Source: a virus
Taxonomy: Duplodnaviria > Caudoviricetes
Length of the DNA stretch: 64,000 bases
Reading direction: 5' to 3' (one strand)
IMG/VR virus record: IMGVR_UViG_3300042291_001013
The stretch's first letter is position 1, and the number at the start of each line of letters is the position of its first letter. The translations under genes and the position numbers were made by a program. A model generated the notes under the pieces. That model ran no database searches. It saw nothing but the letters and a program-made list of their open reading frames with translations, and was not told the origin of the DNA. Positions 5,457-29,380 of this stretch are shown here, in pieces.

Positions 5457-5581
5457 GTCACTATTGTAGCATCTTGGGATTTATTGGCCAACCTAGTGGT
5501 TTGTCACTAAACTCAGTGAAAACCATGGGTTTTGTTGAAGTGCAACAGCGACTCATGGTAAATACTGATGAGGAGAAAACC

Positions 5582-5749
5582 ATGTCTGAACTGATGACAA
5601 AATTATTAGAACGCTTGGCCGAGATGTTTCCAGGTGAGAGATACCAATCTCGATTGGATGCATACATTACTAGCAGACGTCCATGTGACGTATTTGATGT
5701 TGAACGATTTGAACAAGAGTTCAACAAGGAATTCAAGGGGTGGATATGA
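5582..5749 (+). CDS. DUF3563-like small protein
   Basis: SD GAGGAG; RLDAYITSRRPCDVFDVERFEQEF resembles the betaproteobacterial DUF3563 pattern. Confidence 0.5.
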   Translation: MSELMTKLLERLAEMFPGERYQSRLDAYITSRRPCDVFDVERFEQEFNKEFKGWI

Positions 5750-12125: not shown

Positions 12126-12317
12126 TTAACATTCTACGTCTATGTGACGTCCTTTGTCCGAGTCCAAACGAACATTTCGTGCAACACGTTCTGCAATGAT
12201 TCTATCAAAGTTGCGTTTCTCAACTACCTTGCGATAGTCTTCTTCACGCCGGTCTTGCAATTGAATCCGTTCCTGCCGATGCATCTGTAAGTTATGATCA
12301 ATTCTAGCAACGTTCAT
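12126..12317 (-). CDS. Hypothetical charged protein
   Basis: ATGA coupling with the 12314-12463 gene. Confidence 0.7.
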   Translation of the reverse strand: MNVARIDHNLQMHRQERIQLQDRREEDYRKVVEKRNFDRIIAERVARNVRLDSDKGRHIDVEC

Positions 12318-12463
12318 TCTTCAACTCGATTCTTGTGCTTGAGCTTGCGCTTAAAAACTGTTTTGGGCTGTTCCACACGACCGCGGAACGGCAGGTCTGA
12401 ATCGAACAGGGCTCGATGTCGACGTTCCTTTACAGGTGCTAGTGTGAAATGTATCGGCTTCAT
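12314..12463 (-). CDS. ArfA-like (alternative ribosome-rescue factor A-like) 49-aa peptide
   Basis: Manual translation: ...RALFDSDLPFRGRVEQPKTVFKRKLKHKNRVEE vs E. coli ArfA [31 protein letters not shown]. Confidence 0.55.
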   Translation of the reverse strand: MKPIHFTLAPVKERRHRALFDSDLPFRGRVEQPKTVFKRKLKHKNRVEE

Positions 12464-12472
12464 AGTAGTGTA

Positions 12473-12501
12473 ATTATAGCAAAACAAGATTTATTGGTCA
12501 A
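12473..12501 (-). promoter_or_regulatory. Sigma70 early promoter
   Basis: TTGACC-17-TATAAT, 9 nt before ATG 12463. Confidence 0.85.
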
Positions 12502-12746: not shown

Positions 12747-13010
12747 TCAACCAAATTCGTACATGTACTGGGCAACCCTTGGATCCATCTTGATCAGATC
12801 TTTTGCCGCGGCAGTCAATGCACGATAACGAGCTTGTACTTGACTACGGGGCAGTTCGCCATCGCAGGTTAAATTTTCAGGACTCAATGCAGAATCAATC
12901 ATTTGGGCCACTTGCTTGCGGCCTTCAAAAGTGTCAACTTCATATTGACGACTTTTAAAAATTGCATTGTACTGATTTTCACGATCAATATAGGCTTGTA
13001 GTGCTTTCAT
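12747..13010 (-). CDS. Hypothetical early protein
   Basis: SD CAGGAG behind a promoter cassette. Confidence 0.8.
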   Translation of the reverse strand: MKALQAYIDRENQYNAIFKSRQYEVDTFEGRKQVAQMIDSALSPENLTCDGELPRSQVQARYRALTAAAKDLIKMDPRVAQYMYEFG

Positions 13011-13040: not shown

Positions 13041-13069
13041 ATTATAGCAAATTGGGAATTTTTGGTCAA
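13041..13069 (-). promoter_or_regulatory. Repeated sigma70 early promoter (copy 3)
   Basis: TTGACC-AAAAATTCCCAATTTGC-TATAAT. Confidence 0.9.
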
Positions 13070-13075
13070 CCGTGA

Positions 13076-13100
13076 AAAAGCCCCAAATTCTGGGGCTTTT
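13076..13100. terminator. Intrinsic terminator
   Basis: AAAAGCCCC-AAATTCT-GGGGCTTTT. Confidence 0.85.
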
Positions 13101-13117: not shown

Positions 13118-13390
13118 TTACTTTTTAGAAGTTGCTGTGTAAGCCTTCATGATGCCTTCGCCAAATTTCACATAGTCAAATTTGGTAGTTTCTTGCACGG
13201 CTTTCACAGTTTCGCTGGCCACAGTGGTTGCGGCGTCTGTGGTAGCTTTGAATGCTTTTTTGGTGTATTCGGCTTGGTTGTCAATGAACTTGATCATTGC
13301 GTCTTTTACCAATTCGTTTGTGACGAAAGTGTTAACCCAAGTTCTTTTACCGGTTTGTACGGTGTCGATAAGTGCGTCTGCTGTAAACAT
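13118..13390 (-). CDS. Phasin-like amphipathic protein
   Basis: 90-aa all-helical Ala/Thr/Lys-rich protein; PhaR-box-like palindrome over its -35. Confidence 0.45.
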   Translation of the reverse strand: MFTADALIDTVQTGKRTWVNTFVTNELVKDAMIKFIDNQAEYTKKAFKATTDAATTVASETVKAVQETTKFDYVKFGEGIMKAYTATSKK

Positions 13391-13396
13391 AGTGTT

Positions 13397-13413
13397 CTCC
13401 TTAATTAAGCAAG
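13397..13413 (-). promoter_or_regulatory. ROSE-like RNA thermometer hairpin over SD
   Basis: CUU(G)CUU-AAUU-AAGGAG with bulged G opposite the SD. Confidence 0.6.
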
Positions 13414-13469
13414 TTTGCTATAGGACCCGGCCTATCCAGCGTCCTATGTACTATTATATATGACAATTA

Positions 13470-13484
13470 TGTTGCATTGCAACA
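13470..13484. promoter_or_regulatory. Perfect 15-bp palindrome TGTTGCA-T-TGCAACA (PhaR-box-like operator)
   Basis: Overlaps TTGCAA -35, 18 bp from TATAAT (13453-13458). Confidence 0.55.
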
Positions 13485-13533
13485 ATTATTTCTAGTGAAT
13501 GGTCACTAATAAATAACTGCATAGGAGACAAAT

Positions 13534-13842
13534 ATGTTACGATTTTTAAAAGGCTTTTTTGGCAAGGTTCGCCCGCCCGAAACCACTGCACCATACAAGA
13601 TAGACCCACCTGCACCACTCATGCCAACTGTGGTTGATATGTCCGTTTTCCCACATCTCACAGTAGACGGGCACGGAGATGTGCATGAAACCAAAAAGCC
13701 AGTGGCCAAAAAGCCAGTAGCTAAAAAACCTGCGGCTGCAAAAACACCGGCTGTTAAAACGCCTAGAACACCAGCTGTTAAACCCCCTGCAAAAACACTG
13801 GCTGTTAAAAAGCCCAGCCCCCGAAAACCCAGCACAAAATAA
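13534..13842 (+). CDS. Histone-H1-like PAKK/AAKP-repeat basic protein
   Basis: KKPVAKKPVAKKPAAAKTPAVK C-terminal half; amphipathic N-terminus; TAAATA upstream; SD AGGAG. Confidence 0.75.
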   Translation: MLRFLKGFFGKVRPPETTAPYKIDPPAPLMPTVVDMSVFPHLTVDGHGDVHETKKPVAKKPVAKKPAAAKTPAVKTPRTPAVKPPAKTLAVKKPSPRKPSTK

Positions 13843-14890: not shown

Positions 14891-14932
14891 GTGGTTCTCC
14901 TTGTTGTGACAGATTTATTTAAGGAGAATCAT

Positions 14933-14950
14933 ATTACAATTTTGTTACAA
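14933..14950 (-). promoter_or_regulatory. Pho box
   Basis: TTGTAAC-AAAA-TTGTAAT, 11-bp phased direct repeat upstream of pstS. Confidence 0.7.
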
Positions 14951-29269: not shown

Positions 29270-29276
29270 TTGTTTT

Positions 29277-29294
29277 CTCCTTTATATAAGCAAG
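29277..29294 (-). promoter_or_regulatory. ROSE RNA thermometer hairpin
   Basis: CUU(G)CUU-AUAUA-AAGGAG: canonical U(U/C)GCU motif pairing with the SD of an sHsp gene. Confidence 0.75.
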
Positions 29295-29380
29295 ATGACT
29301 TGTGATGTAGCCCCACTATGGGCACTACAATGTTATTTATTATACGAGATTTCTTTTAGAACAAAACCAAATTGAGCAAA

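Follow-up and report, generated by a model that had tools for sequence, protein, structure and literature searches.

A conserved helical protein gene of a freshwater jumbo phage with a putative operator for the host PHB sensor PhaR in its promoter

A giant lake-water phage carries a small and very conserved gene for a predicted helical protein whose promoter holds the DNA site that PhaR, the PHB-granule sensor of the likely host, uses on the host's own phasin genes, so that the phage probably switches this gene on according to the carbon store of the host, although the protein is not a recognizable phasin. The window that we have analyzed is a stretch of 64,000 nucleotides from an uncultured freshwater jumbo phage (Caudoviricetes; IMG/VR record IMGVR_UViG_3300042291_001013). 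An original prediction, made from the sequence alone, had described a divergent pair of genes, one for a 90-aa amphipathic helical protein and one for a protein with an amphipathic N-terminus and a lysine/proline/alanine-rich tail, with a perfect palindrome covering the -35 of the first gene, and we find that this observation is correct in every element. The interpretation offered with it, that the phage senses host PHB through host PhaR and uses phasin-like and PhaM/PhaF-like proteins to coat or tether granules, possibly to draw carbon for replication, with an adjacent pstS preceded by a Pho box fitting the scheme because phosphorus limitation promotes PHB accumulation, is only partly supported, since the comparative evidence favors the PhaR site but not the proposed kinship of either protein nor the inclusion of pstS. 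The features discussed below are collected in Table 1.

Table 1. Positions of the features considered, numbered along the 64,000-nucleotide window
Position	Strand	Feature	Sequence or remark
13118-13390	-	Gene of the 90-aa phage-specific protein, predicted helical	strong SD, AAGGAG 7 nt before the ATG
13075-13100	-	Intrinsic terminator of the 90-aa gene, read from the sequence	GCCCCA-loop-TGGGGC followed by a T run on the minus strand
13397-13447	-	5' leader of the 90-aa gene with two hairpins, ROSE-like
13420-13447	-	5'-terminal hairpin of the leader
13397-13413	-	SD-sequestering hairpin of the leader	bulged G and a UUGCU motif
13453-13482	-	sigma70-like promoter of the 90-aa gene	TTGCAA (13482-13477)-N18-TATAAT (13458-13453)
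13468-13486		PhaR-type operator, inferred from sequence
13470-13484		Core palindrome of the operator, perfect 7-1-7	TGTTGCA-T-TGCAACA
13473-13484		12-mer equal to a listed B. diazoefficiens PhaR site	TGCATTGCAACA
13492-13509		Second inverted repeat, directly abutting the TAAATA motif of the tail gene	CTAGTGA-N4-TCACTAA
13510-13515	+	T4-type late-promoter-like motif, 18 nt before the ATG of the tail gene	TAAATA
13534-13842	+	Gene of the 102-aa tail protein	N-terminus MLRFLKGFFGK, C-terminus KKPVAKKPVAKKPAAAK...
14891-14944	-	Region upstream of pstS	one CTGTCAC half Pho box next to TAAATAAAT
5493-5510		Further copy of the second inverted repeat	abuts the -35 of a minus-strand 83-aa gene
5531-5549		Degenerate second box upstream of a TAAATA motif	TGTTGAAGTGCAACA
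5582-5749	+	Gene of a 55-aa micro-protein
5205-5456		Gene preceded by a TTGGCC-type promoter similar to the early-type promoters below
12465-12500, 13041-13069	-	Near-consensus early-type promoters with TG extension	TTGACC-N17-TATAAT
12314-12487, 12747-13010		Small genes preceded by these early-type promoters
29270-29345	-	hsp20 leader region	TATAAT promoter, 5' hairpin and CUUGCUU...AAGGAG SD hairpin
47938		High-scoring matrix hit	inside a coding region, dismissed

The putative operator and its counterparts on host phasin promoters

The palindrome TGTTGCATTGCAACA occurs once in the window and contains the -35 hexamer and part of the spacer of a sigma70-like promoter that was found by a promoter scan and that matches 10 of 12 consensus positions. 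By our estimate a perfect 7-1-7 palindrome would arise by chance roughly 1 time in 100 in a spacer of 143 bp such as the one that separates the two genes, and the comparative tests that follow put it far beyond chance. The window sequence TG-T-TGC-ATT-GCAA fits exactly the motif TG[N]TGC[N]3GCAA that was footprinted for PhbF of Herbaspirillum seropedicae (PMC3206438). It also fits the site footprinted for PhaR of Bradyrhizobium diazoefficiens, TGCRNYGCASMA (PMC6201568), in that the 12-mer TGCATTGCAACA matches 11 of 12 consensus positions and is letter for letter one of the sites listed for that organism, in which PHB abolishes DNA binding in vitro and one site overlaps a -35.

In order to examine the motif in the organisms that would supply PhaR we have used the pstS of the phage, whose product is 72-78% identical to Hydrogenophaga, Polaromonas and Burkholderiaceae MAG proteins, to find the likely host clade, so that the host is inferred from this one gene. 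In five genomes of this clade (Comamonadaceae/Burkholderiales) all 7 Phasin_2 genes carry two boxes of the form TG[CT]TGC-N3-GCA[AG]CA, one upstream of the -35 and one just after the -10. The motif occurs 12-29 times per host genome against 0-4 for the reversed control and, besides phasin genes, it is found among others at the start of a gene for a PHB-depolymerase-type esterase and before a gene for a patatin-like phospholipase. One PhaR is present in each of the 4 host genomes tested, no strict box was found before phaR in the four host loci, and PhaR is absent from a complete relative phage genome of 364,404 bp with direct terminal repeats, which was used for genome-wide comparison. A 19-column matrix built only from the 14 host boxes was scanned over both strands of this relative genome, and the best of 728,772 positions is the site upstream of its 90-aa gene (21.7 bits). 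The other high hits that we inspected, at 171974, 212259 and 360395, lie inside coding regions. In the window itself the best hit of the same matrix is the palindrome of Table 1 (21.8 bits).

Absence of the palindrome upstream of homologs had been named in advance as an outcome that would count against the PhaR reading, and the comparison came out in its favor. Upstream regions of 63 distinct relatives show a 17-bp element of the form ATGTTGC-N3-GCA(A/G)CAT at a nearly fixed distance from the ATG, with the promoter conserved as TTGCnn-N17/18-TA(T/C)AAT, and in 50 of 63 distinct related loci of 3.5-12 kb the best matrix hit of the whole locus lies at -92 to -114 from the ATG (in one locus at -52). 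Thirteen of the 63 loci lack a standard box; five of these have an ordinary TTGAT-type -35 and about six have a variant with a 4-nt spacer (TGCGACCGCA) in either orientation, differences that may track differences between hosts. We take these data together as strong sequence-level evidence that the element is very probably an operator for host-supplied PhaR, with binding itself inferred from sequence alone.

A second box, the third-best matrix hit in the window at 15.5 bits, lies upstream of the 55-aa gene and looks decayed, with TGC changed to TGA. The 55-aa protein has no Pfam family and 285 relatives on viral contigs, many of which carry a PhaR-type box fused to an ATAAATA late promoter together with a conserved leader hairpin (CTCAGTAGAAACCATGAG), and in 21 of 43 distinct relatives of this gene the best box of the locus sits upstream of it. 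The other inverted repeat beside the palindrome, (C/T)TAGTG(A/G)-N4-TCACTAA, occurs in the window only at the two divergent promoter regions listed in Table 1 and once in the 364-kb relative, against 0.2 in shuffles, and is conserved as TTAGTGA-N4-TCACTAA in most relatives that have the tail gene; it may be the site of a further regulator.

The 90-aa protein and its leader

The 90-aa family is large and tightly conserved, with 1198 clusters at 90% identity within E 0.01, all on viral or metagenomic contigs, of which the best 120 are 70-91% identical to the query, and with 140 clusters at 50% identity, all of them small proteins. Relatives of the gene lie on IMG/VR contigs of 214-364 kb and, where genomic context was read, in conserved phage synteny (UDP-glucose dehydrogenase, UvdE, ClpP). 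The protein is 99% identical in the complete 364-kb relative, although that genome shares only about 3% of sampled 25-mers with the window, and no homolog was found in 301 Burkholderiales genomes searched, the single weak hit lying inside a 797-aa frame. AlphaFold2 predicts three helices (2-22, 26-70 and 73-88) at pLDDT 85, and the protein is moderately amphipathic (hydrophobic moment 0.35-0.5).

Homology to phasins, however, is not shown. The protein of the window gives no hit in Pfam at E <= 1, nor in PHROGs or NCBIfam, no Phasin_2 hit was obtained in the complete relative genome, and 12 of 43 diverse family members touch Phasin_2 only weakly (E 8e-4 to 0.1). The nearest named language-model neighbors are Phasin_2, PHB_acc and PHA_synth_III_E clusters at 0.83-0.87, which can be regarded as leads only. 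In a profile comparison by hhalign with a Phasin_2 alignment that we built from 36 proteins found with the Pfam model in proteobacterial genomes, a probability of 2% and a score of 19.2 were obtained, as compared to 19.7 for the reversed alignment. Two sequences of this alignment came from an unpublished genome on which nothing else rests, and the negative result does not depend on them. Comparisons with whole, domain-cut or only small Phasin_2 members and with host PhaR likewise scored at noise level. Searches of the AlphaFold2 model against PDB and the ESM Atlas returned only generic helical hairpins, and a profile search of PDB sequences only designed helical bundles. The protein is thus phasin-like solely by analogy of size, helicity and regulation.

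From about 13447 to the ATG the RNA is highly conserved and forms two hairpins, in the second of which UUGCU pairs with the SD around a bulged G. In an alignment of 50 related leaders, nearly all with UUGCU or UCGCU, 89.6% of cells pair (91-92% over the helices) and 75 cells carry changes on both sides, against 22.9 +/- 4.4 in shuffles and 8-24 when partners are slid, with double changes in 6 of 10 pairs of the first hairpin and in 2 of 6 pairs of the SD hairpin. The Rfam model ROSE_3 (RF02523) matches over its full length at 27.1 bits, E 3e-4, which is below its gathering score of 43; none of 20 relatives passes the gathering score either, and a genome-wide search with this model was uninformative. 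The minimum free energy is -17.5 kcal/mol (z -2.6), and the energy model supports the first hairpin but not the SD hairpin at 37 C, which fits a marginally stable element but proves nothing. The hsp20 gene of the phage has a leader much like that of the 90-aa gene but no PhaR-type box. Assembled contigs from four metatranscriptome studies cover the gene and leader, one of them a 337-nt contig spanning 13104-13431 and others ending at 13447, 13440 and 13439, a few bases (about 6 nt in the case of 13447) after the -10. Because these are contigs found through this very gene, so that depth, strand and uncovered flanks are not evidence, they provide only a weak hint of a monocistronic transcript that starts where predicted.

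The tail protein and pstS

The 102-aa protein is the divergent neighbor of the 90-aa gene in about 39 of 53 distinct related loci and evolves fast, with only 26 database relatives of its N-terminal half, none of them named. Its constant features are an N-terminal amphipathic helix, replaced in several relatives by a transmembrane helix, an invariant APYK(V/I)(E/D)xP motif and a K/P/A-rich tail, and in some relatives there is also a cysteine motif (CGCGRS..C.GLH), inserted as K/RCGCGRSxTGxCVGLHKLTPEEW and possibly metal-binding, that the copy in the window lacks. The proposed kinship to PhaM and PhaF is not supported, as the resemblance is in composition only (a histone-H1-like HC2 hit at E 0.004, below cut-off) and no granule- or PhaC-binding N-terminal domain was recognized. 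The transmembrane helix of relatives points to the membrane rather than to granules, and the TAAATA motif, which is kept at the same place in relatives, suggests T4-type late expression without a PhaR box. Our best guess, and a tentative one, is that this is a late-expressed, membrane-anchored polycation that could hold DNA or another polyanion. Inclusion of pstS in the module is not supported either, since it lies within 3 kb of the 90-aa gene in only 9 of 87 related loci, at varying positions, and is missing from the syntenic relatives. The Pho box before it is only half present, as a single repeat and not as a full two-repeat PhoB site.

Interpretation and relation to known systems

In the explanation that we favor, which as a whole we regard as about as likely as not, the 90-aa gene would be read by host RNA polymerase from a promoter whose -35 and spacer lie inside an operator for the host's PHB-responsive repressor, the phage having no phaR of its own. 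In a host with little PHB, PhaR would sit on the operator and keep the gene off, whereas in a host that is making or holding granules PhaR would be drawn onto the polymer surface and the gene transcribed, the same logic that the host applies to its phasin genes. Translation would be gated a second time by the ROSE-like leader, where the 5'-terminal hairpin likely stabilizes the mRNA and the weak second hairpin hides the Shine-Dalgarno sequence. Because it is regulated like a phasin the product would most likely act at the granule surface, coating it, displacing host proteins or promoting mobilization of the polymer for phage replication, a role that is plausible but unproven and that we hold only tentatively. 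What the analysis establishes is the sequence of the operator, its position and conservation, its identity with the boxes on phasin promoters of the host clade and the covarying structure of the leader, while PhaR binding, PHB-dependent derepression, granule binding and its effect, including any draw on host carbon, are inferences for which no binding or expression experiment exists.

Of the alternatives, the one that survives best, although we consider it unlikely, is that PhaR does control the promoter but that the product is a small stress, chaperone-like or regulatory protein whose synthesis is merely timed to a carbon-replete, PHB-holding host and, through the leader, to temperature or stress. 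It is favored by the lack of detectable homology to phasins, by a leader of the type found before small heat-shock genes and by the many genes unrelated to granules in the B. diazoefficiens PhaR regulon, so that PhaR control does not prove a granule function; yet in characterized PhaR regulons the most strongly repressed genes are phasins (fold changes of 50-129), the protein is small, predicted helical and amphipathic, and weak but repeated Phasin_2 and PHA-related signals appear in relatives. It is more doubtful that the likeness to PhaR boxes is a coincidence and that the repeat is the -35 region plus a site for a phage-encoded regulator, or simply a conserved promoter. The left arm does contain the -35, a second phage-specific palindrome lies beside it and binding data are lacking, but a matrix from host phasin promoters alone picks this site first in 364 kb, the right arm is conserved without a -35 role, relatives carry the box fused to late promoters that have no -35, and there are only one or two sites per genome, unlike a phage's own promoter class. 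That the conserved operator serves mainly as a decoy, in that replicating phage DNA would multiply PhaR sites, titrate PhaR, a low-abundance autoregulated repressor in R. eutropha, and derepress the host pha regulon, with the downstream gene being secondary, is very unlikely given the fixed place of the box inside a promoter and the very strong conservation of the downstream protein.

The boldest reading, which we regard as unlikely though not excluded, is that a widespread family of roughly 350-kb freshwater jumbo phages reads the carbon reserve of its Burkholderiales host through PhaR and, together with a thermometer-like leader, uses that signal to make a phage-invented granule-surface protein (and in relatives a micro-protein operon) that remodels or mobilizes PHB for phage production. 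PHB is a major carbon and energy reserve of lake bacterioplankton, and how phages deal with it or profit from it is essentially unknown; our literature searches for phage-encoded phasins or PhaR-controlled phage genes returned nothing relevant. A phage promoter carrying the host PhaR operator would be a direct and easily testable case of a virus sensing an intracellular storage polymer rather than an external nutrient. As the gene family is very common in lake metagenomes, on contigs of up to 350 kb, the effect could matter for carbon flow during viral lysis, and the family offers a new 90-residue candidate PHB-surface protein unrelated in sequence to known phasins.

The closest system is the PhaR/PhbF/AniA-phaP circuit of PHB-storing proteobacteria (C. 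necator; H. seropedicae, PMC3206438; B. diazoefficiens, PMC6201568), with which the phage locus shares the operator sequence (a TGC-N3-GCA core with TGTTGC/GCAACA arms), its position over the -35/-10 region and a downstream gene for a small amphipathic protein, predicted helical. Here, however, the operator sits on a lytic jumbo phage without phaR, there is one box at the -35 instead of two boxes flanking the promoter, the product has no detectable homology to any phasin family and a ROSE-like leader is added. Phasin_2 proteins (PF09361) are likewise small, alpha-helical and amphipathic, but at 90 aa the phage protein is about half the length of the host phasins (180-200 aa). ROSE thermometers share with the leader the two hairpins and the U(U/C)GCU opposite the SD with a bulged G, but the phage element scores below the gathering threshold and precedes a gene that is not a small heat-shock gene, and thermometer function is by analogy only. 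The granule-to-nucleoid tethers PhaM (PAKKA) and PhaF (AAKP) and histone H1-like tails (HC2, AlgP) share with the tail protein a K/P/A-rich repeated C-terminal tail (pI 11.5), whereas the phage protein lacks a phasin or PhaC-binding domain, has an amphipathic or, in relatives, transmembrane N-terminal helix and its own invariant APYKVE motif, and is preceded by a late-type promoter motif without a PhaR box. Finally, expression of cyanophage pstS and phoA is reportedly driven by the host PhoR/PhoB system (Zeng and Chisholm 2012), so that there too a lytic phage places the site of a host regulator before a phage gene and expression follows the nutrient state of the host; in that case the signal is external phosphate and the gene is a host-derived metabolic gene, while here the inferred signal is the internal carbon store and the gene is phage-specific.
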